Below, piece by piece: positions 35,150-57,070 of a stretch of 59,216 nucleotides of DNA. Position numbers and translations under genes: made by a program. Within the stretch, counting starts at the first letter, position 1; each line of letters begins with the position of its first letter. A model generated the notes under the pieces. The model saw nothing but the letters and a program-made list of their open reading frames with translations, did not search any database and had not been told where the DNA came from. Source of the stretch: an uncultured Ignavibacteriaceae bacterium (GTDB lineage: Bacteria > Bacteroidota > Ignavibacteria > UBA10030); NCBI GenBank assembly GCA_964645575.1, contig CAZYAM010000003.1:9064-68279 (forward strand). Reading direction: 5' to 3'.

Positions 35150-36020
35150 TTTGAATAACTTCCCAGATGTTTCTAATTTGTTGCGAGACTTCTCCGTCGG
35201 AATATTCTATAACAGTTTTTTTATTTACCATTGCTTCTATTATTGCGGTATCATATTTGATTTTACCTGCCAGCGCAACTCCGTTTTTTCGACAATATCT
35301 TTCTATTTCTTCGGCCATTTCCGTATTCAGGTCGTATTTATTGACAACTACAAATGTTTTTACATTAAAATGCTGCGCTAATTCTATTACTCTTACCATA
35401 TCATGTAAACCTGATAAAGTGGGCTCTGTCACTATTAAAGCGCAGTCAATTCCTGAAATCGAGGAAATAACCGGGCAGCCTATTCCGGGAGAACCATCAA
35501 CGATAATGATGTCGCGATTTTCCTTCTCGGCTATCAGTTTTGCATTCTGTTTTACTATGGTCACTAATTTACCCGAATTTTCTTCCGCAACGCCTAATTT
35601 AGCATGAACGAAGGGGCCATATTGAGTGTCTGATATAAACCACTCGCCTGAAATACATTCTTCCATCTTTATTGCTTCTTGGGGACAAATATAACTGCAG
35701 ACTCCACAGCCTTCACAAGAAATAGGGTCAACTGTTACCGTCGATTGCTGATTGCTTATGGATGATTGAGTAATGGCGTCAAACCGGCACACTTCAAGAC
35801 ACATGCCGCATTGATTACATCTCTCGGTATCGATGACAGCGGTCTTGCCGCCTTTAAATTCATGTCTCTCCAGAATTTTTGGATTGAGTAAAAGATGCAA
35901 ATCTGCTGCATCTACATCACAATCAGCCATAACTTTGTTTTTCACTAAACTGGCAAAAGCAGCGGTAATAATCGTCTTGCCCGTTCCACCTTTTCCGCTT
36001 ATAACTACAATCTGTTTCAT
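35136..36020 (-). CDS. MinD-superfamily P-loop ATPase with inserted 2x[4Fe-4S] ferredoxin (COG1149), copy 1
   Basis: SGKGGTGKT, DCDVDAADL, CNQCGMC..C and CEGCGVC..CP, ENSGKLV, DGSPGIGCP. Confidence 0.93.
   Translation of the reverse strand: MKQIVVISGKGGTGKTIITAAFASLVKNKVMADCDVDAADLHLLLNPKILERHEFKGGKTAVIDTERCNQCGMCLEVCRFDAITQSSISNQQSTVTVDPISCEGCGVCSYICPQEAIKMEECISGEWFISDTQYGPFVHAKLGVAEENSGKLVTIVKQNAKLIAEKENRDIIIVDGSPGIGCPVISSISGIDCALIVTEPTLSGLHDMVRVIELAQHFNVKTFVVVNKYDLNTEMAEEIERYCRKNGVALAGKIKYDTAIIEAMVNKKTVIEYSDGEVSQQIRNIWEVIQNGLN
35741..35770 (-). repeat. Degenerate heptamer repeat forming an in-frame insertion (about SSISNQQ) in the ferredoxin loop
   Basis: Minus strand actcaat-catccat-aagcaat-cagcaat-cgacggt. 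Confidence 0.5.
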
Positions 36021-36394
36021 GAACCTCTCTTCAATAAATAATCGGCCAGCGCCTTGTGTAAAGTGGTCACTGCCAAAATTGCGCAATGAACATTAGAACC
36101 TAAAAAATCGTGCAGTTTATCTATAACATCTGCCGGAGATAATTTTAAGGCATTGTTTATAGTTTGTCCTTTCACCATTTCAGTTGCAATTGATCCGCAT
36201 GCTGTTGTGATTCTGCATCCGTCGGTATAGAACAAAACCTCGGAAATTTTTCCATCAGTTATTTTTATGTGCATCTCCATAGTATCACCACATTGGCCTT
36301 TCACCAGAGCGGCACCGTCCGGCTTGGCTATTTTTCCGAAATTCTTCGGCTGGGAAAAATGTTCAACTATTTTCTCTGAAGATATTTTTTTCAT
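36017..36394 (-). CDS. NifU N-terminal / IscU-like Fe-S scaffold, copy 2
   Basis: HFSQPKNFG, CGD, DGC and HCA motifs. Confidence 0.88.
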   Translation of the reverse strand: MKKISSEKIVEHFSQPKNFGKIAKPDGAALVKGQCGDTMEMHIKITDGKISEVLFYTDGCRITTACGSIATEMVKGQTINNALKLSPADVIDKLHDFLGSNVHCAILAVTTLHKALADYLLKRGS

Positions 36395-36433
36395 GTTTTT
36401 CTATTGTTTAATTCTTTGCGCTTATAATTCTTT

Positions 36434-37354
36434 TTATGATTTGAATTTTTTAATATCGTTAAATAACCGTACAAATTTCGTTTTAAATTCAGGAATAAAT
36501 TCAACCATAGGAATTCCTTTTGAATAAGATTCGGCTATTTTTCTGTCAAAAGGTATTCTCATTAAAACCGGAATATTTTCTTTATTGCAGTACTTATCAA
36601 CCTCTTGATACCCTGCCTGCCCTGATGCTGTCGGAATATCTGTTCGGTTTATTACCACACCAAAAGCAATGTTCAATTTTCTAATAACTTCTACTGCGAG
36701 AATGAGATCGTTCATGCCAAACGGAGTGGGTTCGGTTACGAGAATACAATAATCGCTGCCTTTGATGGACCCGATTACCGGGCAGGATGTGCCGGGTGGA
36801 GCATCGATGATGACCACTTTATTGTTTGTAATATTTTTCTTAACTGCTTTAATAAGGGGCGGCGACATCGCTTCACCGATATTTAACTTTCCACCAACAA
36901 ACTCGATTTTTCCAACTCTGCCGATTTGAATATTTCCTATTTCCCGGCCTACTTCCTCAATTGCTTTCTCGGGACAGAGTAAACTACAGCCGCCGCAGCT
37001 GTGACAGAGTTCAGGAAAAATTAAAACCTTTCCGCCGGATGCGGATCCCTGCTCGTCCGTCGGGCGAGTGTTTTGGTTGAAATTTCTTATCACAGCAATA
37101 GCGTTGTAAGCACACACTTCCTGACATTTACCACAGTAGGTGCATCTCTCTTCGATTACTTTAGGTACGGGAATGCTTATTGGTAGAGTTTTTGTAATAT
37201 TCGGTTTTAAGAAGATATGCGCGTTTGGCTCTTCTACATCGCAGTCAACAATCTGTATCGCACCTATATCGGCGGATGACAAGGAAAGGGCTAAATTTAC
37301 CGCTATGGTAGTTTTTCCCGTTCCACCTTTTCCACTGGCAATTGATATAATCAT
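36434..37354 (-). CDS. MinD-superfamily P-loop ATPase with inserted ferredoxin (COG1149), copy 2
   Basis: SGKGGTGKTT, DCDVEEPNAH, two ferredoxin Cys motifs, DAPPGTSCP, TEPTPFG. Confidence 0.93.
   Translation of the reverse strand: MIISIASGKGGTGKTTIAVNLALSLSSADIGAIQIVDCDVEEPNAHIFLKPNITKTLPISIPVPKVIEERCTYCGKCQEVCAYNAIAVIRNFNQNTRPTDEQGSASGGKVLIFPELCHSCGGCSLLCPEKAIEEVGREIGNIQIGRVGKIEFVGGKLNIGEAMSPPLIKAVKKNITNNKVVIIDAPPGTSCPVIGSIKGSDYCILVTEPTPFGMNDLILAVEVIRKLNIAFGVVINRTDIPTASGQAGYQEVDKYCNKENIPVLMRIPFDRKIAESYSKGIPMVEFIPEFKTKFVRLFNDIKKFKS
36614..36634 (-). repeat. 21-nt REP-like in-frame insertion encoding PTASGQA
   Basis: CCGACAGCATCAGGGCAGGCA inside NRTDI[...]GYQEV; shares GGCAGGCAGG with the intergenic hairpin at 37534. 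Confidence 0.6.
37031..37068. repeat. Two stacked REP-like hairpins inserted in frame (..TRPTDEQGSASGG..)
   Basis: TCCGC-cggat-GCGGA and CTCGTCC-gtc-GGGCGAG inside the ferredoxin loop of ATPase copy 2. Confidence 0.6.
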
Positions 37355-37533
37355 TTTTCTTGTTTATTCTTGACAGCAAACATTTCGAGAGATTTATAAA
37401 AAATATTTTCGTTTGAACATATATCATCTGTTCAGGCACTATGAAAACGATATTAAAAAGAATCTCAGGTCATTCCTATCGGATTATTTCGAAATCGATA
37501 TATATATTATACCGCAATATGCACGATAAATTG

Positions 37534-37563
37534 CCCGCCTGCCAGAGCGAAACGGCAGGCAGG
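37534..37563. repeat. Intergenic REP-like hairpin
   Basis: CCCGCCTGCC-agagcgaaac-GGCAGGCAGG, 9 of 10 pairs. Confidence 0.65.
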
Positions 37564-37601
37564 AGTTCAGCATGATAAAAATCCTATTTTTGAGATAGGT
37601 C

Positions 37602-38126
37602 TTAGTTGCTATCATTATATTGATAATCGAGTCTTTTTAAAGCTAATGCTTCGTTTGGACAAGTATTGACACAAACGCCGCAGCCAGAACATTTTTCTGA
37701 ATCGATTTTTGCTGTGTAATTTAACGTGATTGCCCCTTGATCGCAAACATCAATGCATGTTCCGCAGCCCGTGCATTTATTTTCATCGATAAAAGCTTTA
37801 ACAGATACTTTTTCCCCGGTTATATTTTGTTTCCCCTTGCTTATGCTCAATTCATCGATCCTGTTAAGGATTGAGTCTATATGATGCTGAAGTGTTTGAG
37901 CTTGTTGTTTCAACATATCCAATTCTTGATCTTCTGGAATAGGTTGTTGTGGATCTTGCAGTGATTGTGGCTGAACTGTAGATGGTGTCCAACTCTCGGA
38001 CAACTGCCTTTGTACCATCCCCTGTCCCGTTCCACGGCCCATACCTCTTGCAAATCTACGATTTCTACCTCTTCCTGTTCCCGGACCATTGCCCCATAAT
38101 GGTCCTTTTCCATTACCACCCGGCAT
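37602..38126 (-). CDS. DUF5320-like N-terminus + coiled coil + 2x[4Fe-4S] ferredoxin fusion
   Basis: AGGAGG RBS; MPGGNGKGPLWGNGPGTGRGR; CTGCGTCIDVC and CSGCGVCVNTCP. Confidence 0.88.
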   Translation of the reverse strand: MPGGNGKGPLWGNGPGTGRGRNRRFARGMGRGTGQGMVQRQLSESWTPSTVQPQSLQDPQQPIPEDQELDMLKQQAQTLQHHIDSILNRIDELSISKGKQNITGEKVSVKAFIDENKCTGCGTCIDVCDQGAITLNYTAKIDSEKCSGCGVCVNTCPNEALALKRLDYQYNDSN

Positions 38127-38127
38127 T

Positions 38128-38379
38128 TTAATTACCTCCTTGTTGATTATCATTCTTACTGTTAAGGGCTTTTTTCTCGTCTTGTTTCTTTGAAGAAAAG
38201 AGTTTTACAATTGAAGCGAGCAATGTAACAGCACTTCCTATCAATGCTATTACACCTTGTGATTTGTTTTCATTCTCGGATATTGAATCCTTTTTTACAG
38301 TACTGTCAAATTGTTGACGCCTGTATCCTGTCCCTGGCCCGCTGCCCCATGGGGGCCCTTTTCCATCTCTATCTGGCAT
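38128..38379 (-). CDS. Small protein with DUF5320-like N-terminal motif and a hydrophobic helix
   Basis: MPDRDGKGPPWGSGPGTG; VIALIGSAVTLLASIVKLF. Confidence 0.75.
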   Translation of the reverse strand: MPDRDGKGPPWGSGPGTGYRRQQFDSTVKKDSISENENKSQGVIALIGSAVTLLASIVKLFSSKKQDEKKALNSKNDNQQGGN

Positions 38380-39776: not shown

Positions 39777-40247
39777 TTATTTCTTTTGGCATTTATTGCA
39801 CAGCCCATAAAATTGAATAAGGTGATTTGTGATTTTAAAGTTAAATTTTTTAGATAATCCTTTTTCTGTTTGGCCAAGTAATTCTTTCTCTTCTTCGGCA
39901 AAATCTGTGTAATCAATAATTTTACCGCAATCTGTACACAATAAATGATGATGATGTTGTTTTCCTTGGAATCCTTCGGCTAACTCGTACCGGGCTCTTT
40001 TATCTCCGAAGTCGAATTTCAAGATAAAGCCCATTTCTACGAGCAACTCCAGTGTCCGGTATATGGTTGTTAAGCCGATGGCCGGATATGTTTTATGGAC
40101 TGCCATATATATTTCTTCAGCGCTTAAATGCTCGGTCGTTTTACTTAAGAGATCGAGGATTGCTTCTCTCGGAATAGTTAATCTATAACCATAACCCCTA
40201 AATTTTCCGTGCCACCAGCGTGATCCCATTTTCATTCCTCTTGGCAT
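39777..40247 (-). CDS. fur: Fur family transcriptional repressor
   Basis: RLTIPR, HLSAEEI, TIYRTL, HHHHLLCTDCG, C-terminal CNKC. Confidence 0.95.
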   Translation of the reverse strand: MPRGMKMGSRWWHGKFRGYGYRLTIPREAILDLLSKTTEHLSAEEIYMAVHKTYPAIGLTTIYRTLELLVEMGFILKFDFGDKRARYELAEGFQGKQHHHHLLCTDCGKIIDYTDFAEEEKELLGQTEKGLSKKFNFKITNHLIQFYGLCNKCQKK

Positions 40248-44422: not shown

Positions 44423-45703
44423 TTAAAAAAATACTCTCATCCATAGCTCGATTCGTTGTTGTACTTGCTTCCCTCCATATTCTGTCATGTTGTTCCCTGC
44501 AAGCAGTGTTCCCCAGAAAATAAATTCGGTGTTTATGATAGGTTTGTAACTTATTCGGAGCGATAAAAGGTAACTGTTATCTGACAGATTGTAGATTGTG
44601 TAGAGCGATGGAGTGAAGTAGAGCCAGTCGAACGGTTCGGGGTGCATAAGTTTTATATACAAATAATCTTGCATCAATGTACTGCCCTTGAAATATGTCT
44701 GATTGATCCCGAATGTTTGTTGTGCAACAGCAGGGTCGGGATTGTTTACACCATTGTTCAGGAACTCATTGTATTGCGCAAACTCGGCTTTGCTAAGTCC
44801 AAGACCGTTGTGATAATATTCCGCAATGATGGTTGTGTTCGATGCGTCGAGATATCGCAACCCGAAAAGATATGAAAACCTGTCTACGGATTCGCAGGTG
44901 AGCGCTCCGTTTATAATTGCAAATCGCTCCATATTCTTATTATGGCTTAGTTCGCCATGCATTTCTATATTCTCTTGAAGATTTCGTGAAAAATCGAATC
45001 CGAATTGTCTCGATTTGTCTGCTCTGTAGTATGCAAGCAGATCAATGTCCGTATCCCAGAGTAAGAAGTAGGACTTTAATGCGATAGCTGTATTCCCAAG
45101 TTCTCTAAATTGAGTGCCGGTAATGTCCGAAGGAGGAATCACAATTGCCAGGAACGAAAAACTTTGAAGAGCTTTTGATGAAAAGCTTTTGATGTACTCG
45201 ACGTTAGCTGAAAGTAAACCTGATTGCGCAAGTTCCGGATTCTCAGGGTCTTTAACAGGATTAACAAAACCGCCGGGATTGAATGCATAGCCTTTTCCCC
45301 AGCTGTATACGCGCTTTCCTGCCTGCAATGTTATATTGAATGAAGGATTGAAACTGCCATATGCTTCAAACAAATCAACCTGTGCATCGGTATCACTGTA
45401 ATAGGTTGCGTGTGTTTTCAGTATAAATCCCAAATCGCCAGTTCGATAGTCGGCGTTTAGGTACGGCTCCAATCTATATTGCGAGAGCAGCGATGATGAC
45501 AGATGCTCTCTTAGAAATTGAAGTTTGTACTGCGCCGAGTTTCTGTCCATATGGAACAGCGTATACTTTATATCAAGGTTACCGCTCAATTCGAGTTTCT
45601 TTTCTTTCTCTGGTGGAATTTCTGAAGCATCTTCATCCTGTCCGAATGCAAAAGCCGATGATGCGAACATCCCAATGAATATGAACCATCGGGAAAGTCT
45701 CAT
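44423..45703 (-). CDS. Putative outer-membrane beta-barrel protein
   Basis: Signal peptide, GKRVYSWGKGYAFNP motif, alternating beta pattern, C-terminal Phe. Confidence 0.75.
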   Translation of the reverse strand: MRLSRWFIFIGMFASSAFAFGQDEDASEIPPEKEKKLELSGNLDIKYTLFHMDRNSAQYKLQFLREHLSSSLLSQYRLEPYLNADYRTGDLGFILKTHATYYSDTDAQVDLFEAYGSFNPSFNITLQAGKRVYSWGKGYAFNPGGFVNPVKDPENPELAQSGLLSANVEYIKSFSSKALQSFSFLAIVIPPSDITGTQFRELGNTAIALKSYFLLWDTDIDLLAYYRADKSRQFGFDFSRNLQENIEMHGELSHNKNMERFAIINGALTCESVDRFSYLFGLRYLDASNTTIIAEYYHNGLGLSKAEFAQYNEFLNNGVNNPDPAVAQQTFGINQTYFKGSTLMQDYLYIKLMHPEPFDWLYFTPSLYTIYNLSDNSYLLSLRISYKPIINTEFIFWGTLLAGNNMTEYGGKQVQQRIELWMRVFF

Positions 45704-46431
45704 TATCTCAAGTCTCCAAGCCGTCCCATGTAGTTTAGCGTAAATACCTCATCGGGGAATTTCCGTTTCTTGATAGTCTGGTAAATCATCAACGAACGAT
45801 ATTCTTTATAGAGCGGACTATATGTTTCAATTATAGAAGGCCGAACCAGTCCGCCGCCGTAATTTTTATCATCCTTAAACTCCAGGGTTTTAATGAGCAT
45901 ACCGCTGGCGGAGTAGGCTTCAACTTTCCGGAGTATTTTTTTGTCTTTCTCAATCCACATCTTGAGCTTATCGTATGCAACTGTTTTATTCCTTGCTTTC
46001 AAATTGAGGATATACTCTTTGTCTGTTTCCTCAGAATAGGCCGCGTCGTACTCCGTCGAATAGTCCAGCTGCATAATATCCGCGTTATTGAAAACGCCTC
46101 CGACCACAGATTGAAGGCTTGTAATACGTATAGGCTTATTTGCGCTTGGAATATAGAGCCACATATTCTCTCCCAGCCGCAATGTAGAACGCCCTTTCTC
46201 GCTTGCCGGCAAAAGGTAGAGCATTGCAATCTTGTCTTTTCCTTTCTTCACTGTGTAGAATGTGAATTCCTTCTTTGTTCCATTAGGTTCTTCATTAATG
46301 AGTTTTCGTTTTGCCTCGTATGATTCCGGCATAAGGTTTTCATCAACTTCCTTTAGGAGTTTGTTGGCGTCTTGTGCTTTAACATTGAATGCGAACAGAA
46401 GTGCAATAACGAACATCGATACAATTTTCAT
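45703..46431 (-). CDS. LolA-like outer membrane lipoprotein-sorting protein
   Basis: Signal peptide; LRLGENMWLYIPSANKPIRI; VFNNAD. Confidence 0.85.
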   Translation of the reverse strand: MKIVSMFVIALLFAFNVKAQDANKLLKEVDENLMPESYEAKRKLINEEPNGTKKEFTFYTVKKGKDKIAMLYLLPASEKGRSTLRLGENMWLYIPSANKPIRITSLQSVVGGVFNNADIMQLDYSTEYDAAYSEETDKEYILNLKARNKTVAYDKLKMWIEKDKKILRKVEAYSASGMLIKTLEFKDDKNYGGGLVRPSIIETYSPLYKEYRSLMIYQTIKKRKFPDEVFTLNYMGRLGDLR

Positions 46432-46492
46432 AACTCTTTCACTTTTTATATTTGAGTAAATATTCCTTTTAAAATTCCTGGCATGTTTTACG

Positions 46493-47725
46493 CTACACAT
46501 GCCCTAAAGCATCCACAGGCTCCATCTTTGATGCCTTATAAGCAGGTTGGAAACCTGCAAAAAGCGACATGAGCATGACGATAATAGCTACCCACATGAT
46601 TTCACCGGCCGGAATACTTGGCGCCAGTGATACATTCATTTGACCGAATGTGAAATCAATCTTTGTTGTGTTCATGAGCCATAGTATGCTAAGTCCGATG
46701 ACGATGCCTACGACCGTGCTTAGTAATCCCATCGCAAATCCTTCGATCAAGAAGAGGGAGAGAATCCGGCGGGGCGGTGTTCCGATTGCCGCAATAGTTC
46801 CTATTTCGCTGATTCTCTCGTACACCGACATAGTCATTATATTTAGAATACTCACTAGCACAATGGAAATCAAAATGAATTTTACAACTATGACCAAAAG
46901 GTCTACAATACGTGCGATGCTGGCGAACGGTGAAAGTTGTTCCCATGTATGTACTTCAATGGATGCTTGTGGTGCAGCGAATTTCTTTTTTAATTGCACG
47001 AATACATTGTTGAGCTGATCAAATCGTTGCAAGTGAATCGCTATTTCCACTATCTCAGGTTGATCCATCCGCAGAAGTGCCTGCCCGTCCTGGATGTGGA
47101 TGTAGCCGTCCTTGCCGGAGGGACCGAATACATTCTCCGTTACTGCAGCGATGAGTAACGTTATTGCATTGACCGATCCTTCTTTGTTTGTTGCTACCAG
47201 AACAATTTCATCTCCCGTCTTCAGTGAAAGACCCTTCATGAGATTTTCCGGTACCAGTATTTCTCCCGGCTTAAGAAAATTCTCGGGATTGGGGATATCT
47301 CCTCTGATACGTTTTATAAATTCTGGCACAGTACGATTCTCCATTTCCGGGTACACTGCGCTCAACCGGATGTTGGATGTTTGTGCGTAGTTACTGATCA
47401 TTGCACCAAATTTAATCCGCGGGCTGTACGCTGCAACTTCCGGCATTTCCTTCAGCATCGTTTCAACCTTTGCCAGTTCCATTCCTGAAAGAGTGAGATT
47501 AAGCGGTTGATTATCGATGGATTCAACATATCCCTTTGCGTGAATTTGCAGATCGCCCATCGCCGTGTTCGTCAATACACCAACCATTTGTGATTTAAAT
47601 GATATTGCCAGTCCCCCGAATACTACTACGATGATGACGCCAAACGAAATCAGCGATGAAGTAAGAAGCGTCCGCCGTTTGTTCCGAAATAGATTACGGA
47701 AAGCAATTATGATCAGATTTCTCAT
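46493..47725 (-). CDS. MacB/FtsX/LolE-family ABC permease
   Basis: AFRNLFRNKRRT, ERISEIGTIAAIG, PVDALGHV. Confidence 0.92.
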   Translation of the reverse strand: MRNLIIIAFRNLFRNKRRTLLTSSLISFGVIIVVVFGGLAISFKSQMVGVLTNTAMGDLQIHAKGYVESIDNQPLNLTLSGMELAKVETMLKEMPEVAAYSPRIKFGAMISNYAQTSNIRLSAVYPEMENRTVPEFIKRIRGDIPNPENFLKPGEILVPENLMKGLSLKTGDEIVLVATNKEGSVNAITLLIAAVTENVFGPSGKDGYIHIQDGQALLRMDQPEIVEIAIHLQRFDQLNNVFVQLKKKFAAPQASIEVHTWEQLSPFASIARIVDLLVIVVKFILISIVLVSILNIMTMSVYERISEIGTIAAIGTPPRRILSLFLIEGFAMGLLSTVVGIVIGLSILWLMNTTKIDFTFGQMNVSLAPSIPAGEIMWVAIIVMLMSLFAGFQPAYKASKMEPVDALGHV

Positions 47726-47728
47726 TGC

Positions 47729-48424
47729 TTATCCAGCCTTTCTGTATTCCGTGTTGACAATAGTTCCATCTTCCAGAGTGTGAAGGATTTCTGCTTCTCC
47801 AACAATCTTAGGGTCGTGTGTTGAAAAAATGAACGTTGTCCCGAATTCGTTCGTCATCTCGTGCATGATATTTATAATCTTAAATGCAGTGACATGATCG
47901 AGATTGGCTGTTGGCTCGTCTGCGAGAACAATTTGTGGATTTGTCACCAAAGCTCGTGCGACAGCAACACGCTGTTTTTGCCCGCCGGAAATCCGGTTTG
48001 GATATTTTTCTTTTTGGTCGGACATACCGACCTTTTCCAATAATTGCATCACACGGCTGTGACGTTCCTTCAATGGAAGCCGGCCAAGCATAAGGAGTGG
48101 ATACTCGACGTTTTCATACACGGTCAAGACAGGAATAAGATTGAAATTCTGAAATACGAAACCGATGGTCCTTCCGCGAAACGCTGCGGCTTCGGCTCTG
48201 TCTAATTTGTTCACATCAGTTCCGTTGACAAGTATATTGCCCTGCGTCGGTTTATCTAGAACGCCGATGAGATTCAACAGAGTAGATTTCCCGCTCCCTG
48301 AAGGGCCGATGAATGAAACAAAAGATTTTTTTTCAAGTTGAAGCGATATACCTTTTAATGCCCTAACCGGTACTTCACCTGTCTGATATACCTTCGTAAC
48401 GTTTTCTAATTCGATTAAACTCAT
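47729..48424 (-). CDS. LolD/MacB-type ABC ATP-binding protein
   Basis: [34 protein letters not shown]. Confidence 0.95.
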
Positions 48425-48698
48425 ACTTGCCCCGTTTCCAATGAATTCGTGATCCATCTCTCTCTTCTATAAATGTCAAACACCATAACAGGTATCGTCA
48501 GATGATCAAAGGATTTTTTCAAAATTCTTGAATCAGAATTACGGCCCGAAGGATGTCCGTCATGAGATTCTCTTGCGCGGATTAACCATGTCTATTTTGT
48601 CTTGTTGCTTTTTGCCAATGAGGACTATCCTCTTTTATCGTATTATACCAAAAATATTTATATGGAATTTACAAGTTTCTCACTTTGTCTAATTTCAG

Positions 48699-49637
48699 TT
48701 ATTTGTCTTTTCTTTTATAAAAAACCCCTCTTTCTTGCCTGACCGGTTCAATTTTATTTTCTGATTCTAAAACATCAAGGTATTTATTAATTTCGTTGAT
48801 ATGCATCCCCAATATTTTTGCCAGGTCGTCAATCGTACAGGGTCTTCTTGCTATGGTCTCTATGATGGCTGTTTCTGTATCTTTTCTGTATGACTGTATG
48901 TTTTTTCTTTCCGACGATGCTGCAATTATTTCAACATTGTCTAATTTCCAGAAATTGATTACACGCTGCAATTCTTCTTTTGTCGCACTTCTTAAATTTG
49001 TTACCGTTCCGGGTCGATCTAAGGTATTTAATTGAACAGAATCGGGATTTATTTTTAATATTGCTTTTTTAAGCTCTATCAGCTCATTATCGCTGTCATT
49101 ATATCCCGGAAGAATGAATATCTCGAGCCATATTTTTCCTTTAAACTCGCTCCTTAGTGTTATTAATCCTTGTATGTATTTATCTATTGTTAAATTTTCC
49201 GGAGGGCGATTTATTTTTTTGAATACATCTTCTGTTGCTGCGTCCAGAGAGGGAAGGATAACGTCTGCGTCTTTTATCGCATCTCTGACATTTTTATCGT
49301 AAAACAATGTTCCATTCGTTAAAACGGCAACAGGAATGCCGGGCTTATTTTGTTTTATAAATTGAAGAATTTCACCTATGCGAATGTTTAACGTTGGCTC
49401 GCCAGAACCCGAAAAGGTAATATAATCAGGATCGGGATTGTTGGCGAAATAATTCGTTAATTCCTCTTTTACCTTATCGAACTTAATGTATTCTTTTCTG
49501 TCAAGTGTCAGTTTTGTTGTTCTCCCGACCTCGCAATAAACGCAATCAAGCGAGCATACTTTTTTGGGAACTAAATCAACTCCTAAAGACATCCCTAATC
49601 GTCTTGAAGGAACAGGCCCAAATAAATATTTATACAA
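48699..49637 (-). CDS. Radical SAM protein (COG0731/TYW1-like), intact paralog, TTG start
   Basis: FGPVPSRRLGMSLGVD, CSLDCVYC, SGEPTL, PSLDA. Confidence 0.92.
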   Translation of the reverse strand: MYKYLFGPVPSRRLGMSLGVDLVPKKVCSLDCVYCEVGRTTKLTLDRKEYIKFDKVKEELTNYFANNPDPDYITFSGSGEPTLNIRIGEILQFIKQNKPGIPVAVLTNGTLFYDKNVRDAIKDADVILPSLDAATEDVFKKINRPPENLTIDKYIQGLITLRSEFKGKIWLEIFILPGYNDSDNELIELKKAILKINPDSVQLNTLDRPGTVTNLRSATKEELQRVINFWKLDNVEIIAASSERKNIQSYRKDTETAIIETIARRPCTIDDLAKILGMHINEINKYLDVLESENKIEPVRQERGVFYKRKDK

Positions 49638-49794: not shown

Positions 49795-50187
49795 TTATGA
49801 GAATATTAAATGCTTTCTATTCTCTCCCTTTTCTTTCTCCTGAGATATTTTATCGATATTAGCATGGATAAGTTGAATTGCATCATAAATAGTTGCTCTC
49901 CGCACAACTATGCATACTAAATTTTTTGATAATCTTAGAAGATTGGGGCCAAACCTTTTACCTACAACTCCATCTAATCCTTTCAATACAGAAGCCGTAG
50001 ACTTAGCTTTTCCTGGATCCCCACGTATTATCGATTCATCTTCCTTATATTCAACGTTATTTCTTTGTTCGACAAATTCTTCTTTGTTATCAAAAAAACG
50101 ATAGACATGAAAATACTTAGATTTGCCTGCATGATCTTCTTTCAAATTTATGCCGTCATCTGTACCAAAGGCTATCAATAGTTTCAT
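49795..50187 (-). CDS. Divergent NifB/NifX-like protein
   Basis: IAFGTDDG, HAGKSKYF (Cys of HFGRC absent), FGPN. Confidence 0.75.
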   Translation of the reverse strand: MKLLIAFGTDDGINLKEDHAGKSKYFHVYRFFDNKEEFVEQRNNVEYKEDESIIRGDPGKAKSTASVLKGLDGVVGKRFGPNLLRLSKNLVCIVVRRATIYDAIQLIHANIDKISQEKEKGENRKHLIFS

Positions 50188-50244
50188 GAATGCCTCCTAT
50201 ATAAGTGTTTGATGAGCCTGTTGTCTCAAAAGCGCCTTAGCCAT

Positions 50245-50793
50245 TTATTCTTCCTTTTTATAGTTCTTTTCGCCTGCTTGAATAGAAATTTTAAGCCAGT
50301 TTTCCGGAGGTACGAAAGGGCAGCTGTACTCTTTGCTATAGGCACACCATGGATTATATGCTTTATTGAAGTCGAGAACCCATTTCCCCTCGTTATAATC
50401 GTCTTCAGGTTTAAGGTCAATATATCGTCCCGCCCCATATGTTTCCTTGCCGCTTGTCGCATCACGGAAAGGAATAAATAATCTCCCTTCAGCAGGATTG
50501 CTTTTATAAGCTTGAAGCACGAATTCTTCGTTGTCTATTCTAAACCTGAATTCTCCCCATCTTAGAAGCCCCCTCTCATTATCCTGAGTGTCTTGCACTT
50601 TTATGCTTTCTTTCTTCTTATGCTCGTGAAGAACAAGCTCGAACCTGTATCTGGGGTCGGGGGAATAATAGTAAAGTCCTTTAAACTTTACATGTGCCTC
50701 AAAAGGTATGGGTGATTGAAAATGCTGTCCAAAAAAAACATCTTTATTCTCTCTCTCGGACTCGAGTTGTTTTTTCCATTCGGATATTTCCAT
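50245..50793 (-). CDS. DUF1684 family protein
   Basis: FKGLYYY, PFRDATSGKETYGAGRY, DFNKAYNPWCAYS, CP. Confidence 0.92.
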   Translation of the reverse strand: MEISEWKKQLESERENKDVFFGQHFQSPIPFEAHVKFKGLYYYSPDPRYRFELVLHEHKKKESIKVQDTQDNERGLLRWGEFRFRIDNEEFVLQAYKSNPAEGRLFIPFRDATSGKETYGAGRYIDLKPEDDYNEGKWVLDFNKAYNPWCAYSKEYSCPFVPPENWLKISIQAGEKNYKKEE

Positions 50794-51023: not shown

Positions 51024-51773
51024 TCATTCTGTTCGCTTTTTAGCAGGGAAGAGAAGGGAAACGGTCAACGCAAGCAGTGCATGAAAAAACACAAGTGTAT
51101 ATCCGGTCGGCAAATCTAAATTGTATGAAACAAGTATAGAAATAACATTCACACAGGTCCCGATAGCCCATGCCGTTAAAAGTAATTTTCCTTTATTCAT
51201 TCTGATAGATACATACGCCGGAGCCACGAGAAGAGCGAAGACGATAAGCACTCCCGCCATTCTTACAGAGCTGGTAACGGTTGCTGCGAACGATACAAAG
51301 AATAATATATCTTTCCATACTCCTTTTATTCTTGGATAAACAAAAAATAAGAGCAGGCCGAGGATTGAATAAATAATAGTTGTCTCGACGATATCACTCA
51401 TAGGGGTAAATAAAATATCGGATGCCATAAGTCTATCGAACATTTCTAAGCCGTGGCTTGATTTTGAAAGTACGATAAACACACCTGAAATTCCGAATGC
51501 ATATAAAAGTCCGATAAAAGCTTCATGCGACACGGTTCGCTTTGAAGCGAATGCAATTACAAGTCCTCCAATCAGTGCGAATGAAAGTGAAAGGAGATAG
51601 ATATACTGGCCCTCTAATAACAAAACCGAGAGCGCAGCGCCTAATGCAGCCATCTGGCCAATTGCGAGATCGGTGAATATAATTCCTCGTTTTATAATTT
51701 CAAGGCCAAAGAAGGAATGGATGCCAAGCAGCACTACCGAAAGAAGGAATGCCGAAAGTAATATATCGGTCAT
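51024..51773 (-). CDS. Zn/Mn ABC-type permease (ZnuB-like)
   Basis: IKRGIIFTDLAIGQMAALG, LIVFALLVAPA, DLPTG. Confidence 0.85.
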   Translation of the reverse strand: MTDILLSAFLLSVVLLGIHSFFGLEIIKRGIIFTDLAIGQMAALGAALSVLLLEGQYIYLLSLSFALIGGLVIAFASKRTVSHEAFIGLLYAFGISGVFIVLSKSSHGLEMFDRLMASDILFTPMSDIVETTIIYSILGLLLFFVYPRIKGVWKDILFFVSFAATVTSSVRMAGVLIVFALLVAPAYVSIRMNKGKLLLTAWAIGTCVNVISILVSYNLDLPTGYTLVFFHALLALTVSLLFPAKKRTE

Positions 51774-52660
51774 TGTGTTATTCTCCTTACCATTTCATCA
51801 AATAATGAAATAATTCCTTCAGCTTCTTTAACGGCTCCGATGTCTTGAGGAAAGATAATCATTTTTATATTAAGTTTTTTTGAAAGATATTCTGAAGCAT
51901 CCTTAGGATTATAAACATCCTGCAGGATACAGCGGATCTTTTCACTTTCTATAAGTTTTTCAACTTCTCCGATATGCCTTGAAGTTGGAGGAATACCCGG
52001 CAGAGGTTCTATTGTTCCTGCTATGATAAGTCCGTACTTTTGCAGGAAATAATCATAATTTTTATGATACTCAATTACCTTTACTCCTTTCATCGGATTC
52101 ATTTTCTCTTCCCATTCCTTAGTTTTCTGTCCCCATATTTTCTCAAACTCCGTATAGTTTGTTTGGTAAAGGGATTTACTTTCCGGGTCGATCTCGCAAA
52201 GTTTGTCTGTTATCGCTTTTGCGATTAACAGTATGTTGTCTGGATTCATGCAGAAGTGCGGGTTTCCCTCAGGATGGACATCTCCTTGTTCACGTGAAAC
52301 ACTCGTCGGAACGTCTATAAGGTGCATGTAGGTTGAAAGATCGAGAAATCCCCTCTCTCCCGGCTGAACATTGCCATTATTAGCTTGTTTGAGAATTGGA
52401 GGCAGCCAGCCGATTTCAAGCTGCGCTCCATTGATAATGAGAAGATCGGCTCTCCGTAATTTTGCAATGTATGATGGTTTAGGAATAATAACATGCGGAT
52501 TATAGTCACCTCTTGCGAGTGGAATAACCCGAACACGCTCACCGCCTATTTTTTCTGTAATATCTGCTATATAGGGATAGGTTGTTACAACTTGTAAGCG
52601 TTCAGAAAAAACAACCTGTGTATATAAAATGCAAGTTAAAACAAAACATAATATTCTCAT
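51770..52660 (-). CDS. Zn/Mn ABC substrate-binding protein (ZnuA/AdcA-like)
   Basis: VVTTYP, NPH, HPEGNPH, EYHKN, IEPLPGIPPT. Confidence 0.9.
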   Translation of the reverse strand: MRILCFVLTCILYTQVVFSERLQVVTTYPYIADITEKIGGERVRVIPLARGDYNPHVIIPKPSYIAKLRRADLLIINGAQLEIGWLPPILKQANNGNVQPGERGFLDLSTYMHLIDVPTSVSREQGDVHPEGNPHFCMNPDNILLIAKAITDKLCEIDPESKSLYQTNYTEFEKIWGQKTKEWEEKMNPMKGVKVIEYHKNYDYFLQKYGLIIAGTIEPLPGIPPTSRHIGEVEKLIESEKIRCILQDVYNPKDASEYLSKKLNIKMIIFPQDIGAVKEAEGIISLFDEMVRRITQ

Positions 52661-52681: not shown

Positions 52682-53986
52682 TTAGAAAGAATGCGCGCCA
52701 TGTGCGCCAATGGCTATATTAAGTTGGAGAATAAATTCTGTATAGGGTTTATAAATCAATCCGTTCGAAGTGTGCAGGTATTTGCTTTCATCGTGATTCA
52801 CCTGCAGTCGAAGTCTTGAAAATTCGGTTGGAAGGTACTCAAGCATTGCCGAATATCGAGCGGGATTTTCAGGATAATTCTGTTTCGTACTGCCGATGAT
52901 TACATCATTGAGATTCATAAGATCATATCTTACACCGGCTCTCCATCTGAGCCCCAGTTTAGCAACGAGTTGAGAATAAAAACCTGCCTGTTTTCTTTCC
53001 AGAGAGTTTTTTGCTACCGTAAAAGAAGTATCACGGTTGTACAATGAACCATCTATCGAACGATGCATGTATTCACTCTGGAAAGAAATGTTATGTATTG
53101 CGTCGATGATATATTTTACCGTCAGATCACCGCAGAGAATATCCGTGGAAGCATCAATAGCTGTTCCTTCGTCTTCTGAAGCTGAAAAACCTTCATCCAT
53201 TCTGGTTTTTCCATGAGCGTATGAGAAGCCGAATAATACAACTGTTTCCTCTATGTCGAAGGATGACCGTGCATAACCCACGAACAGGTTTGGATTCTCA
53301 CTCTCATGAATATTAACGAGTCCATTGACATCGCTGAAACCTGCAGTTCCGAAACTTGCTTCGTTTTCTCCCATCAGGATTTCAGTGCCCAGCATAAGAT
53401 AGAAATCAGTTGGTGCGACCCAGGTAATTCGTGTTCCAAGTTCATTCAATCCTTCCTCGCCGAAGAAAGCATTTAATACCAGCGGGCGTTCAGCAAAATC
53501 CAAATAATGTGTGTGTTGTTCATTTAATCTGCCGAAGCTGGATAGAAATTTCCCCGCTTTTACCTGAAAACCGTATGGCAGTTTTCGTGTTGTAATGTAT
53601 GCCTCTTCTAATCCTGCATGTTCCTCTGCAACATGGAGTACAGCGAAGAGATCGAAGTATGGATCAACAATAGAATAGAACGAAATTTCCCCGTAATTAA
53701 GATTAAATCCCTTCAGGGAATTCATGCTGCTATGGTCATGACCCTCTTTGTCATGGTGATGGGTGAATCCCGGCATGTGAAGTTCTGAAAAAACTCCGTT
53801 ATCAATATCCCGTGAAACCCATGAAAAGTCGACAATCATTGAAATATCCGGAACAAACTTCGATTGGTTGAAGGGTGAACCGGCTTTTGATTGGGTTACG
53901 GGGAAATCATCCTGCCCTAATACTGATGCTGTAGCTGTAATTAAAATGAAAAAAACATATTTAAAATTCATATTGATATTCCTCAA
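52682..53986 (-). CDS. His-rich outer-membrane beta-barrel (zinc-uptake porin-like)
   Basis: FVPDIS, HHHDKEGHDH loop, EEAY, FGRLNEQHTH, C-terminal GAHGAHSF. Confidence 0.8.
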   Translation of the reverse strand: MRNINMNFKYVFFILITATASVLGQDDFPVTQSKAGSPFNQSKFVPDISMIVDFSWVSRDIDNGVFSELHMPGFTHHHDKEGHDHSSMNSLKGFNLNYGEISFYSIVDPYFDLFAVLHVAEEHAGLEEAYITTRKLPYGFQVKAGKFLSSFGRLNEQHTHYLDFAERPLVLNAFFGEEGLNELGTRITWVAPTDFYLMLGTEILMGENEASFGTAGFSDVNGLVNIHESENPNLFVGYARSSFDIEETVVLFGFSYAHGKTRMDEGFSASEDEGTAIDASTDILCGDLTVKYIIDAIHNISFQSEYMHRSIDGSLYNRDTSFTVAKNSLERKQAGFYSQLVAKLGLRWRAGVRYDLMNLNDVIIGSTKQNYPENPARYSAMLEYLPTEFSRLRLQVNHDESKYLHTSNGLIYKPYTEFILQLNIAIGAHGAHSF

Positions 53987-54002
53987 AATTAGAAAAGCAA
54001 TA

Positions 54003-54063
54003 GTAGACGCAAGCTTTAGCTTGCGGTTCTGGCTTTACACGCGGACATAAAGTCCGCGACTAC
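54003..54063. repeat. GTAG-family REP doublet (REPIN-like)
   Basis: GTAGA-CGCAAGC-TTTA-GCTTGCG and inverted partner CGCGGAC-ATAAA-GTCCGCG-ACTAC. Confidence 0.75.
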
Positions 54064-54112
54064 CAGACCACCTCAGTTTTCAGTACTAAAGTATTTTTAA
54101 ACGAGAATGAAA

Positions 54113-54424
54113 CTAGGAGTAGTTAGGCGGAGCGTGTGAATAGCAGACTGTTTTTTGAGAGGGATCCGTAACTCTATCGTATTGAGTGATTATCGATACC
54201 AGCACCGGCTTATGGAGTATAATATCTGAAATCCCAGATTCCACTGTTACAGAAGATGATGATAAAGACTGCTGAAATGCGCAAAGAGGACAATTATCAG
54301 ATTCTTCATCACAATGGTGGCTGTGAAATGACATAACAGTAATGCTTGAAAGCAGTGCTGCAAGGATGAAAATGGGAAGGTATTTTTCCGTTCGAAGGGC
54401 AAATTTGGAAATTTTGTTTTTCAT
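54113..54424 (-). CDS. DUF2946-like leader protein (TM helix, HSHH, CxxC, C-terminal HAPP)
   Basis: FHSHHCDEESDNCPLC and SHAPPNYS*; first gene of the metal-uptake operon. Confidence 0.7.
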   Translation of the reverse strand: MKNKISKFALRTEKYLPIFILAALLSSITVMSFHSHHCDEESDNCPLCAFQQSLSSSSVTVESGISDIILHKPVLVSIITQYDRVTDPSQKTVCYSHAPPNYS

Positions 54425-54433
54425 CTCATTGCA

Positions 54434-54462
54434 AAAATATAATAAGTTTATACTATTGTCAA
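54434..54462 (-). promoter_or_regulatory. Sigma70 promoter TTGACA-N17-TATTTT (implies a near-leaderless transcript)
   Basis: The -10 box ends 9 nt before ATG 54424; no Shine-Dalgarno site. Confidence 0.5.
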
Positions 54463-54593
54463 GAAACACTAAATATACACGCCGGCGCTTTCTATTTTTA
54501 TATACTGACTATGAAACCTTATTGGTTGTTCCATTGTTAATAATAAAAAGGATGGTATTTGAGAATGAAGTATTCTGTAGAAAATAAAGAGTA

Positions 54594-54806
54594 ATGAATA
54601 TGAAATCCCACGAATTAATAATCCAGGGAATGAGCTGCAGACACTGTGTTATGCACATGAAGCAAGCTCTGGACTCGGTTGACGGATTGGAAGTTGAGGA
54701 TGTGCAGATTGGCAAGGCGCGCGTCCGGTATGACGATCAAAATGTCATCAAAGCCTTTTCCGAGAAGATAGAAGAAGCCGGATACAAAGTTGTCTCGATT
54801 CAATGA
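54594..54806 (+). CDS. copZ: Copper chaperone (HMA domain)
   Basis: GMSCRHC. Confidence 0.9.
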   Translation: MNMKSHELIIQGMSCRHCVMHMKQALDSVDGLEVEDVQIGKARVRYDDQNVIKAFSEKIEEAGYKVVSIQ

Positions 54807-57070
54807 ATGATTCTGCTCATCATATCGAAACTCTGACACTGCCGATAGAAGGTATGACGTGCGCAAGCTGTGTTGCGCGGGTTGAGAAAACGTTGAAAAA
54901 GGTCGACGGAGTCGAAATTGCCAATGTCAATCTTGCAACGGAAGCAGTTACACTCTCATTTGATCCCCAAAAGGCTTCTCTTGACGTATTGGCCAAAGCC
55001 GTCGATGGGGCGGGCTACAAATTAAAGATACCGGAGGACTCGAAACCTTCCGAAAGTTCTCTTGGCCTTGTGCAAAAGCAACTTTCGGAAGGTTCTTATC
55101 AGGAAAAATCATATCGTCAACTCAAGCGCGAATTTCTCTTCAGTCTCGTTCTCGCAGTTCCGATCATGCTGATCAATATGTTGAGCATGGCCGCTTGGTT
55201 TATGTCCCGCATTCCTTTGTCGATGGATGAGGTTAATACGCTTCTACTGATACTTACTATACCTGTGATGATCGTCTCGGGAAAGCGTTTTTTCAGACCG
55301 GCATGGAAATTAGCACAGCACTTTGCGGCGGATATGAATACTCTCGTTGCTGTTGGAACAGGGTCGGCATTTTTATACAGCGCGTGTATTGTGCTGTTTC
55401 CGCAGTGGTTCCCGCCAGGTACAGATGTACGTGCGGTATATTTTGATTCGGCAGCGGTAATCATCACGCTGATTTTGATGGGAAGAATGCTCGAATCACG
55501 TGCAAAAAATAAAGCATCAGAATCCATAAGACTTCTAATGAATCTTCAGCCAAAAACTGCGCACGTTATTAAAGAGAATAATGAATATGAAATTTCGGCC
55601 GCCGATGTTATTGTCGGCGATGTTCTTATCGTACGCCCCGGCGAACGCATTCCAGTTGATGGTGTGATACTTAAAGGTGTTTCATCCGTCGATGAATCTA
55701 TGGTGAGCGGCGAAAGTATTCCCATAGAAAAAACTATCAGCGATAAAGTGATTGGCGGTACGATCAATCGAAACGGAGGTTTTGAATTTCGTGCAATTGC
55801 TGTCGGAGCAGATACAATTGTTGCCCATATTACAAAACTTGTGGAAGAAGCGCAGGGTTCTAAAGCTCCTATTCAGCATCTTGCCGATAGAATCGCATCT
55901 GTGTTTGTCCCTATTGTGATAATGATTGCAATTGCGACATTCGGTGTTTGGCATTACGCAATCGGCATTGGTTTTGCATCTGCGTTAATGAATGCCGTTG
56001 CGGTTCTCGTTATTGCATGTCCATGCGCACTCGGACTCGCAACTCCCACTGCGATTATGGTCGGAACAGGCAGAGGTGCATCACTCGGTGTACTGATTAA
56101 AAATGCCGAGAGTCTAGAGCGGGCTCATAAAATAAATACAATTGTTTTCGATAAAACCGGGACTATCACCTCAGGAAAGCCGTCTGTAACGGATATACAA
56201 GGACTTAACGGAACAGATGAGGAGGCAGTATTAAAATTAGCAGCTGCGCTGGAAAAGAGATCGGAACACCCACTGGGTGAAGCCATTGTGCGTGAATCAA
56301 AGTTTCACTCTTTTGTTTTGGATGAGACGGATTCGTTTCAATCGCATACGGGATTCGGCGTAGAGGGAACAGTGTATGGCCTGAAAGTGCTCCTCGGGAG
56401 TGAGAAAATGATGAAGGATGTATCTATAGATACCTCAATTGCTGTAAGCGATCTTATTCGGTTCTCCAATCAGGGCAAGACGCCAATTCTTGTTGCCGTC
56501 GATGGCAAGCTTGCAGGTATCATTGCCGTCGCAGATACGCTTCAACAGTTATCGAAAGAGACTGTAGCGGAATTAAAAGCCATGGGATTCGAAATTGTTC
56601 TGTTAACGGGCGATAATTCACGTACCGCAAATGCAATTGCATTACAAGCCGGTATAGATCTTGTCGTCGCTGAAGTTTTACCGAATCAAAAAGCAGCGAA
56701 GGTCCGGGAACTTCAATCAAAAGGGAAGGTCGTTGCAATGGTCGGCGACGGCATCAACGATGCACCTTCGCTGGCACAGGCAGATGTAGGCATTGCAATA
56801 GGAACCGGCTCTGATATAGCGATGGAGACTGCAGATATTACACTGATGAAATCCGATTTAACAGGAGTTCTTCGCGCGATCCGTCTTTCCCGGCAAACCA
56901 TGCGCACCATAAAGCAGAATCTTTTCTGGGCGTTTATTTACAATGCGATCGGTATACCGCTGGCGGCATTGGGTTTGCTCAATCCGATGTTTGCTGCCGG
57001 GGCGATGGTGTTTAGCTCTGTGAGTGTGGTAACAAACTCGCTGAGACTGCGGGTAGCTAAGTTAAACTAA
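54803..57070 (+). CDS. copA: Cu(I)-translocating P1B-1 ATPase
   Basis: GMTCASC, SGES, CPC, DKTGT, HP, GDGINDAP, YN and MxxSS motifs. Confidence 0.96.
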   Translation: MNDSAHHIETLTLPIEGMTCASCVARVEKTLKKVDGVEIANVNLATEAVTLSFDPQKASLDVLAKAVDGAGYKLKIPEDSKPSESSLGLVQKQLSEGSYQEKSYRQLKREFLFSLVLAVPIMLINMLSMAAWFMSRIPLSMDEVNTLLLILTIPVMIVSGKRFFRPAWKLAQHFAADMNTLVAVGTGSAFLYSACIVLFPQWFPPGTDVRAVYFDSAAVIITLILMGRMLESRAKNKASESIRLLMNLQPKTAHVIKENNEYEISAADVIVGDVLIVRPGERIPVDGVILKGVSSVDESMVSGESIPIEKTISDKVIGGTINRNGGFEFRAIAVGADTIVAHITKLVEEAQGSKAPIQHLADRIASVFVPIVIMIAIATFGVWHYAIGIGFASALMNAVAVLVIACPCALGLATPTAIMVGTGRGASLGVLIKNAESLERAHKINTIVFDKTGTITSGKPSVTDIQGLNGTDEEAVLKLAAALEKRSEHPLGEAIVRESKFHSFVLDETDSFQSHTGFGVEGTVYGLKVLLGSEKMMKDVSIDTSIAVSDLIRFSNQGKTPILVAVDGKLAGIIAVADTLQQLSKETVAELKAMGFEIVLLTGDNSRTANAIALQAGIDLVVAEVLPNQKAAKVRELQSKGKVVAMVGDGINDAPSLAQADVGIAIGTGSDIAMETADITLMKSDLTGVLRAIRLSRQTMRTIKQNLFWAFIYNAIGIPLAALGLLNPMFAAGAMVFSSVSVVTNSLRLRVAKLN

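Follow-up and report, generated by a model that had tools for sequence, protein, structure and literature searches.

Metal-sensing arrest peptides have been described only recently (CruR in 2022, CutF in 2023) and have so far been tied experimentally to copper only. CruR (Bp2923) of Bordetella pertussis was reported to be poorly structured and belongs to the DUF2946 family, whose products carry an export signal and are encoded in the first position of an operon, ahead of a long intergenic region; a CxxC motif is separated by 45 residues (plus or minus 1-2) from RAPP, which stands 3 residues before the C-terminus (PMC9426467). In CruR spacing mutants, an increase by 2 residues was tolerated and an increase by 5 was not (PMC9426467), and in vitro the ribosome arrests with the Pro-Pro codons in the P and A sites (PMC12992588). 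CutF of Rhodobacter capsulatus stalls upon copper binding, opens a stem-loop masking the Shine-Dalgarno (SD) sequence of the following gene, and turns on a detoxifying oxidase; the CutF-like proteins comprise 5,334 members in 29 clusters (Ozturk et al. 2023). Here we analyze an upstream open reading frame (uORF) in a stretch of 59,216 nucleotides, hereafter the window, from an uncultured Ignavibacteriaceae bacterium (assembly GCA_964645575.1, contig CAZYAM010000003.1, positions 9,064 to 68,279). Comparison of sequences and analogy with the characterized systems suggest, with a probability of about 0.6, that the uORF encodes a cis-acting, metal-sensing arrest leader peptide of the CruR/CutF type (DUF2946-like), translated from a near-leaderless mRNA.

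Two other systems are pertinent to this locus. The RQH arrest motifs have R, Q or H in the first position, and arrest at HAPP was shown for one peptide, uDF_RQH_Lachnospirales, in which the H129A substitution weakened the arrest in the B. subtilis PURE system (Fujiwara et al. 2024, PMC10987492). The uORF product shares with the RQH family the C-terminal H-A-P-P and an N-terminal localization signal, a combination that would also suit an RQH/SecM-type monitor of secretion or membrane insertion, which the pulling force of insertion would free from arrest and in which Cys and His would play no part. However, the RQH peptides, which monitor export, are encoded upstream of secA, secDF or yidC, have no conserved Cys/His site, and show no overall similarity to the uORF product, whereas the uORF precedes genes for a porin-like outer-membrane protein (OMP), a ZnuA-family binding protein and an ABC-3 permease. 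Given this exclusive linkage to metal-transport genes, together with the invariant HxH and CxxC at a fixed distance from the arrest motif, a secretion monitor appears very improbable. In an artificial construct that joins the ADR1a Cys2His2 zinc finger to the SecM arrest peptide, arrest at R-A-G-P is released only with Zn2+ (Nilsson et al. 2015, PMC4571824), so that the physical principle proposed here is known to work. The uORF likewise encodes a putative 2His+2Cys site in a nascent chain; the difference is that folding of ADR1a takes place within the tunnel, at a distance of 24-26 residues from the arrest, whereas the site considered here would lie 46-48 residues away, outside the tunnel.

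The uORF, its peptide and its relatives

A sequence-only reading of the window had described a 103-residue ORF with a membrane helix, HSHH, CPLC and a terminal SHAPPNYS, and every one of these features is present (Table 1). The peptide reads MKNKISKFALRTEKYLPIFILAALLSSITVMSFHSHHCDEESDNCPLCAFQQ...TDPSQKTVCYSHAPPNYS*, where TDPSQKTVCYSHAPPNYS is the C-terminal end before the stop codon. A GTG-started alternative of 118 residues would reach 54469 and span the conserved -35 box of the uORF promoter, and the ATG at 54424 is therefore considered to be the start. The K/R-rich N-terminus is followed by a family-conserved hydrophobic stretch of 18 residues, a predicted export signal or N-in transmembrane segment, and then by FHSHHC (residues 33-38, with HSHH at 34-37) and CPLC (residues 45-48). 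His34, His36, Cys45 and Cys48 are invariant in the family (alignments A2 and A4); the linker between CPLC and the C-terminal block is Ser-rich and poorly conserved. AlphaFold2 (AF2) predicted a helix at residues 2-32 (pLDDT 77-93) and a further confident helix at residues 46-56, with low confidence in the C-terminal half, which resembles the poor structure reported for CruR. Within the whole 59-kb window, the uORF is the only ORF that ends in [RHQ][AGS]PP.

Six homologues of the uORF product, with 47-53% identity, were returned by a word-indexed search; when 1.84 billion representative proteins were searched in full with a profile, about 27 genuine relatives of about 100 residues each emerged. 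Three very long profile matches (P0015, P0022 and P0025) are repetitive Ser/Thr-rich proteins and were dismissed as spurious. Pattern scans detected the gene in 9 GTDB genomes, all of them metagenome-assembled genomes of Ignavibacteriota or 'Bacteroidetes', and in 22 metagenome contigs. About 30 Ignavibacteriota loci retain H-x-H, C-x-x-C and the terminal block TDPSQKxVCxSHAPP ahead of the same OMP, ZnuA and ABC-3 genes. Among 25 relatives with 20-53% identity, the invariant or nearly invariant columns are His34, His36, Cys45, Cys48, Ala98, Pro99 and Pro100. When the C-termini of the homologues were aligned, as the sequence-only reading had proposed, the terminal block was found to be kept in Ignavibacteriota, with HAPP invariant, and the first position of the motif to vary farther out: most relatives have H there, a large group of distant ones has R, and a few have Q; RSPP also occurs.

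The geometry of these motifs closely follows that of CruR. In 24 HAPP members, CxxC and xAPP are separated by 46 residues, and in the RAPP members by 45, with an unconserved linker sequence; the separation is 45 in CruR and 48 in the window. As in CruR, xAPP stands exactly 3 residues before the stop codon in the window, and 3 residues follow it in most members of the family. The amino acids of the terminal block are invariant in the Ignavibacteriota clade although nearly every codon varies synonymously, and selection therefore acts on the peptide and not on the RNA. For the HxH-CxxC block, comparison of the window with its closest relative, locus L021, gave a pN (non-synonymous) of 0.022 against a pS (synonymous) of 0.45. 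Thus, the uORF is a real gene, and its peptide is under selection. The codon of His97 is CAC in 13 of 13 loci (positions 54134-54136 on the minus strand of the window, and 12 others), although these genomes are AT-rich and the adjacent codons vary synonymously. Among the closest relatives, the synonymous divergence of the uORF (dS 0.32) is far greater than that of the porin gene (0.088).

The same conservation pattern was weighed against a mature, membrane-anchored metal-binding protein, such as an accessory or chaperone of the OMP/ZnuA system, for which HAPPxxx would be an interaction or processing motif. Such a protein would account for the membrane helix followed by the invariant 2His+2Cys block and the confidently predicted helix at residues 46-56, for the constant co-occurrence with the same transporter genes, and for the conservation of the last 15 residues within Ignavibacteriota, which resembles that of a binding epitope. 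However, across the family only the motifs and the 45-46 spacing survive, whereas the linker has changed freely, as has most of the tail, which is the signature of a ruler rather than of a fold; the low predicted confidence in the C-terminal half points the same way. In addition, CruR has its motif in the same position, with a corresponding H/R/Q-APP set and spacing, and there these features work in cis. We consider the mature protein unlikely.

The link between the cis-acting leader proposed here and DUF2946 (PF11162 in Pfam, with a gathering score of 23.7 bits) was traced through intermediate sequences. PF11162 was the commonest sub-threshold Pfam family among the relatives (5 of 25, best E = 0.0062). 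All 10 RAPP-ending bridging sequences match it in one register (profile positions 53-117 of 117), 2 of them, P0053 (28.3 bits) and P0060 (29.4 bits), above the gathering score. A profile of the HAPP family finds RAPP proteins of the pattern SFHHHDD...DCxxC...SRAPPxx at E values down to 1e-14, including the PF11162-annotated P0053 at E = 9e-7, and hhalign aligned the HAPP and RAPP families with 98.2% probability over the helix-HxH-CxxC part. Judged by these profile comparisons, DUF2946 membership of the uORF product is transitive only: it is a divergent relative at the edge of the family and no formal member. For the family as a whole, the spacing, the tail length, the xAPP variants and this profile link support the CruR-like leader peptide that the sequence-only reading had put forward.

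The comparison with the two characterized leaders shows both likeness and difference. Similarly to CruR, the uORF is predicted to encode a small exported protein with a CxxC motif and is the first gene of a putative metal-import operon, with a long spacer before an outer-membrane gene. Unlike CruR, it has HAPP in place of RAPP and an invariant HxH eight residues before CxxC; it is followed by a porin-like OMP and a ZnuA/ZnuB ABC importer, whereas CruR is followed by a TonB-dependent transporter and PepSY; it belongs to an Ignavibacteriota and not a proteobacterial host, in an AT-rich and, as predicted, near-leaderless context; zinc is likelier than copper; and nothing found here supports Rho-dependent termination. 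The uORF product falls in the superfamily of CutF and, like it, combines a signal sequence, here predicted, with a Cys/His site, here a putative metal site, and a proline motif near the C-terminus. The reported neighbours of CutF-like genes, in contrast, are OEP/RND, TonB-like, PCuAC and HupE/UreJ genes, with no ZnuA-type importers among them.

Table 1. Positions in the window of the uORF, its predicted functional elements and the downstream genes
Feature	Position	Strand	Description and support
uORF (leader peptide gene)	54113..54424	-	103 codons + TAG; ATG 54424-54422, stop 54115-54113; supported by homologues
-35 box of uORF promoter	54457..54462	-	TTGACA; consensus scan, fixed distance to uORF ATG in nearly all homologous loci
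-10 box	54434..54439	-	TATTTT; 17 nt after -35, 9 nt before ATG; consensus scan
Hydrophobic signal-anchor or signal-peptide helix	54326..54382	-	Codons 15-33, after K/R-rich N-terminus; sequence, AF2, family conservation
Putative 2His+2Cys metal site	54281..54325	-	H-S-H-H-C-x6-C-P-L-C, codons 34-48; alignments A2 and A4
Putative arrest segment	54125..54169	-	TDPSQKTVCYSHAPP, codons 86-100; amino acids invariant despite synonymous changes
HAPP	54125-54136	-	Residues 97-100, within putative arrest segment
Predicted P-site codon (Pro99)	54128-54130	-	Analogy with CruR toeprint (PMC12992588)
Predicted A-site codon (Pro100)	54125-54127	-	Analogy with CruR toeprint (PMC12992588)
Three-codon tail and stop	54113..54124	-	N-Y-S + stop after HAPP; tail length conserved, 3 residues in most intact members
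Structured intergenic region, uORF-OMP	53972..54112	-	141 nt; minimum free energy -44.3 kcal/mol, z = -3.4 vs shuffles
Conserved RNA hairpin	54040..54058	-	CGCGGAC-UUUAU-GUCCGCG, preceded by GGUAG; 7 loci
Second GC-rich hairpin	54008..54025	-	CGCAAGC-UAAA-GCUUGCG; not conserved; weak U-rich tail
SD of OMP gene	53980..53984	-	GAGGA; 8 nt before ATG 53971; homologous start sites
Porin-like outer-membrane beta-barrel gene (OMP)	52682..53971	-	429 aa; weak Pfam matches to Porin_O_P and TonB-dependent-receptor barrel
ZnuA-family (cluster A-I) metal-binding protein	51770..52660	-	Three-His zinc-type ligand pattern; Pfam ZnuA E = 1.9e-44
ABC-3 (ZnuB-like) permease	51024..51773	-	Pfam

Promoter, operon and candidate metal

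A sigma-70-like promoter, TTGACA-17-TATTTT, lies directly upstream of the uORF in the window and ends 9 nt before its ATG. In nearly all Ignavibacteriota loci, the geometry is either TTGACA-17-TAyTTT-9-ATG or TTGACA-17-TATATA-6-ATG. From this geometry, the transcript is predicted to have a leader of 0-3 nt, with no room for an SD of the uORF itself. The near-leaderless transcript of the sequence-only reading is thus supported by the promoter-to-ATG distances across loci, with the transcription start site predicted from sequence.

Four genes read in the same direction, uORF-OMP-ZnuA-ABC-3, with the uORF in first place and the promoter upstream of it, which agrees with the earlier placement of the uORF at the head of a metal-uptake operon; also as described earlier, copZ (54594-54806) and copA (54803-57070) are divergent from it. 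In about 14 loci, copZA are likewise divergent, 170 nt upstream of the uORF. The OMP had no match above threshold to curated families. Near its N-terminus, at residues 65-80 (53732-53779 on the minus strand), there is a His-rich stretch, HMPGFTHHHDKEGHDH, and metal may thus be captured at the outer membrane. The best NCBIfam match of the binding protein is AztC, and this protein has a His where PsaA has Glu205, so that its ligand pattern is the three-His one seen in zinc-type members of cluster A-I.

The RAPP-type relatives precede homologues of the same genes, an OMP with 28-39% identity, ZnuA and ABC-3, in Geobacter sp. SVR, two metagenomic lineages and GCA_041546465, with 44-190 nt between the uORF and the OMP gene. 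The P0061 lineage has the same downstream genes, as judged by gene order and Pfam annotation; the distant HAPP member P0028 has other neighbours. In Geobacter, a Fur-family gene is located immediately upstream of the RAPP-type locus. The published accounts of CruR/CutF-like and RAPP/RGPP uORFs, which report TonB-dependent transporters, PepSY, PCuAC, YcnI, RND/OEP and HupE/UreJ as neighbours, were searched for zinc, ZnuA and Ignavibacteria, and nothing was found. The uORF and its relatives represent a wider, apparently undescribed subfamily tied to ZnuA-type importers. Within the CruR/CutF kind, the uORF of the window is novel in its HAPP motif, the added HxH, the ZnuA-type importer and the Ignavibacteriota host.

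Zn(II) is favoured as the sensed metal, at what we consider roughly even odds, because of the three-His binding protein with its AztC match, the HxH plus CxxC ligand set, and the Fur-family neighbour in Geobacter. A Fur-family regulator of 156 aa is encoded in the window itself (39777-40247, minus strand; Pfam FUR E = 1.3e-32). It reaches none of the NCBIfam cut-offs set for Fur, PerR or Zur, and the earlier statement that the window contains no Zur gene is not safe.

Several further features of the neighbourhood were observed. The divergent spacer between copZ and the uORF contains an inverted repeat, ATGGAAC-N10-GTTTCAT (54511-54534), which is kept in most of 12 aligned loci and is possibly the operator of a copZA regulator. 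No ABC ATPase gene adjoins the ZnuA and ABC-3 genes (51024-52660); the nearest ABC_tran gene (47729-48457, minus strand) is grouped with an FtsX/MacB permease and a LolA-like gene (45703-48457, minus strand). On the 3' side of the permease are genes for a DUF1684 protein, a NifX-like (Nitro_FeMo-Co) protein and a radical-SAM protein (49795-50793 and 48699-49637, minus strand), and farther along (35136-38153, minus strand) there are two MinD/Fer4 ATPases and a DUF5320/Fer4 protein. A NifX-like gene is likewise found 3' of the operon in the P0004 contig, and MacB/FtsX and DUF3299 genes lie 3' of the ZnuA unit in Geobacter.

Intergenic RNA and possible coupling to the OMP gene

The spacer between the uORF and the OMP gene, 122-182 nt long in Ignavibacteriota loci, is structured in the window (Table 1). 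The hairpin at 54040-54058 has 93.9% of cells paired among the 7 loci, with compensatory changes in 2 pairs and G-U wobbles, and is absent from other spacer types. Its interpretation as a repeated element was rejected, given that it occurs in a single copy in the window and, in L001-L013, only 3' of the uORF. An Rfam scan of 53500-54800 at E <= 1 detected no known RNA family.

Pairing was also computed between the end of the uORF and the SD region of the gene that follows. Across 29 non-redundant loci, the mean energy for the final seven codons of the uORF is -11.6 kcal/mol, compared to -6.9 for synonymous recodings; p was below 0.5 in all 29 loci and below 0.05 in 17 of them, and the Fisher combined p of 1.7e-16 is inflated by relatedness among the loci. 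The lineages differ in their tail and SD sequences, yet the pairs match: the tails GCUCCUCC, AUACUCCUA, CCUUUCCUG and GCUCCUCCUGCCUGA correspond to the SD regions GAGGAGU, UAGGAGUAU, CAGGAAAGG and CAGACACAGGAGG, respectively. For 14 loci, RNAalifold draws a long-range tail-SD helix that encloses two internal hairpins with compensatory changes. This complementarity in the relatives parallels CutF, which acts only in cis and in which the stem-loop over the downstream SD is opened by the stalled ribosome; unlike in CutF, the SD in the window has no complementarity to the tail of its own uORF.

The parallel raises the question of the direction of the response. An arrest leader could follow the opposite, CutF-like logic, in which metal induces or prolongs the stall and turns the operon on, in response to metal excess or to another metal. 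CutF, of the same superfamily, works in this way, stalling on copper binding and melting the stem-loop that hides the SD; the tail-to-SD complementarity in the relatives and the pairing of copZA efflux genes with the locus in the loci mentioned above would fit such a scheme. Nevertheless, the genes that follow the uORF serve import (an OMP, a binding protein of cluster A-I and a permease), the gene of a Fur-family repressor adjoins the import genes in Geobacter, and metal normally represses the genes for its own import, which is the CruR logic. A CutF-like response is accordingly judged quite unlikely, and CruR logic, in which metal shuts down expression, fits best because the operon imports metal.

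Proposed mechanism, its weighing and its implications

That the ribosome arrests at HAPP, which metal is sensed, in which direction the operon responds and how arrest is coupled to expression are all inferred here; under the CruR-type reading, these elements would combine as follows. The near-leaderless mRNA would be translated, and the N-terminal helix would target the nascent chain to the membrane. Once the ribosome arrives at H97-A98-P99-P100, Pro99 occupying the P site and Pro100 the A site, the TDPSQKxVCxSHAPP segment in the exit tunnel would halt elongation three codons before the stop. At this point, the invariant HxH-x8-CxxC block, 46-48 residues upstream, would have just emerged, at about one tunnel plus one translocon length: with Pro99 in the P site, CxxC would be 51-54 residues from the peptidyl-transferase centre, and the tunnel accommodates about 30 residues, to which the length of the translocon is added. 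The fixed ruler of 45-46 residues would follow if sensing takes place at the periplasmic mouth of the translocon.

When metal is scarce, the arrested ribosome would keep the OMP, ZnuA and ZnuB genes expressed. This could be achieved in either of two ways: the stalled ribosome may cover the last codons of the uORF, a strand that can pair with the OMP SD in most relatives (compare CutF), or, along the lines suggested for CruR, it may prevent termination within the structured spacer. When metal occupies the 2His+2Cys site, the nascent chain would compact and pull, the arrest would be freed, the ribosome would terminate, and downstream expression would fall.

A number of findings weigh against this reading. 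The uORF of the window had no match to PF11162 even at E <= 10. Its motif has His at the position of an Arg that CruR cannot do without, and the single HAPP peptide that has been tested arrested only in the B. subtilis system (PMC10987492). As for the metal, the conserved copZA neighbour and CxxC fit copper equally. With regard to coupling, a terminator scan called no intrinsic terminator in the uORF-OMP spacer, and a Rho loading site was rejected, the spacers not being C-rich and G-poor. A partition-function model of the whole leader with a ribosome footprint raised SD accessibility only from 0.22 to 0.28 across loci, an effect that, in this model, is too weak to support or exclude SD masking. 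A search for RNA-seq runs holding the window sequence returned none; the DNA runs that hold it are salt-marsh metagenomes.

Other adverse points concern the window lineage specifically. The window is the weakest case of tail-to-SD pairing (tail ACUCCUAG, SD GAGGAAU, -4.8 kcal/mol, p = 0.48). The spacing of 48 in the window and its closest relatives, L005, L021 and L022, results from a 2-residue Ser insertion. Between the window and L021, the uORF has a dN/dS of 0.37, compared to 0.15 for the neighbouring genes, and thus evolves faster than they do. In L021 and L022, where the porin is 97% and copA 91% identical to those of the window, an additional gene intervenes between the uORF and the porin gene, and the uORF carries the changes C94W and S89F. 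The additional gene (2813-3459 in L021 and 1103-1749 in L022) starts with MQKKEVLPPTYF..., and the same gap also contains a terminator-like hairpin. In L013 (7001-7304), a 1-nt insertion after uORF codon 38 breaks the frame, which reflects either a pseudogene or a long-read assembly error.

Because of the spacing of 48, the missing tail-to-SD match, the additional gene in L021 and L022 and the frameshift in L013, the uORF may be coupled less tightly in the window lineage than in the rest of the family. Taken further, the odd spacing, the missing complementarity and the inserted gene of this lineage, along with the frameshifted copy in L013, a more distant Ignavibacteriota locus, would agree with a chance or decaying ORF that is functionless today in the window genome. 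This explanation seems most improbable in view of the intact frame with all motifs, the conserved promoter, the overall dN/dS of 0.37 and the strong constraint on the metal-site block (pN and pS given above).

Beyond the CruR-type leader proposed for the window, the locus and its relatives could define an undescribed cross-phylum class of zinc-sensing leaders, with HAPP in Ignavibacteriota and RAPP in Geobacter and others. In such leaders, a Cys2His2-like site 45-46 residues from [H/R]APP would let zinc free the ribosome on a leaderless mRNA, with the arrest codons and the tail doubling as the anti-SD strand; this would be the first natural nascent-chain zinc switch, operating alongside Zur. 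We put this wider proposal forward as tentative, with odds clearly below even.

Should the CruR-type reading hold, the locus and its relatives would extend the principle of the metal-sensing arrest peptide to an ABC-type, probably zinc, importer, as well as to a His-for-Arg arrest motif, a 2His+2Cys sensor and phyla beyond Proteobacteria. The 45-46 ruler, common to these peptides and CruR, offers a handle on the relay from metal binding outside the tunnel to the peptidyl-transferase centre, and the uORF tails and SD sequences that match each other in different lineages provide a simple, mutable model for coupling. The RAPP form in Geobacter sp. SVR makes the proposed mechanism testable in a cultured relative.

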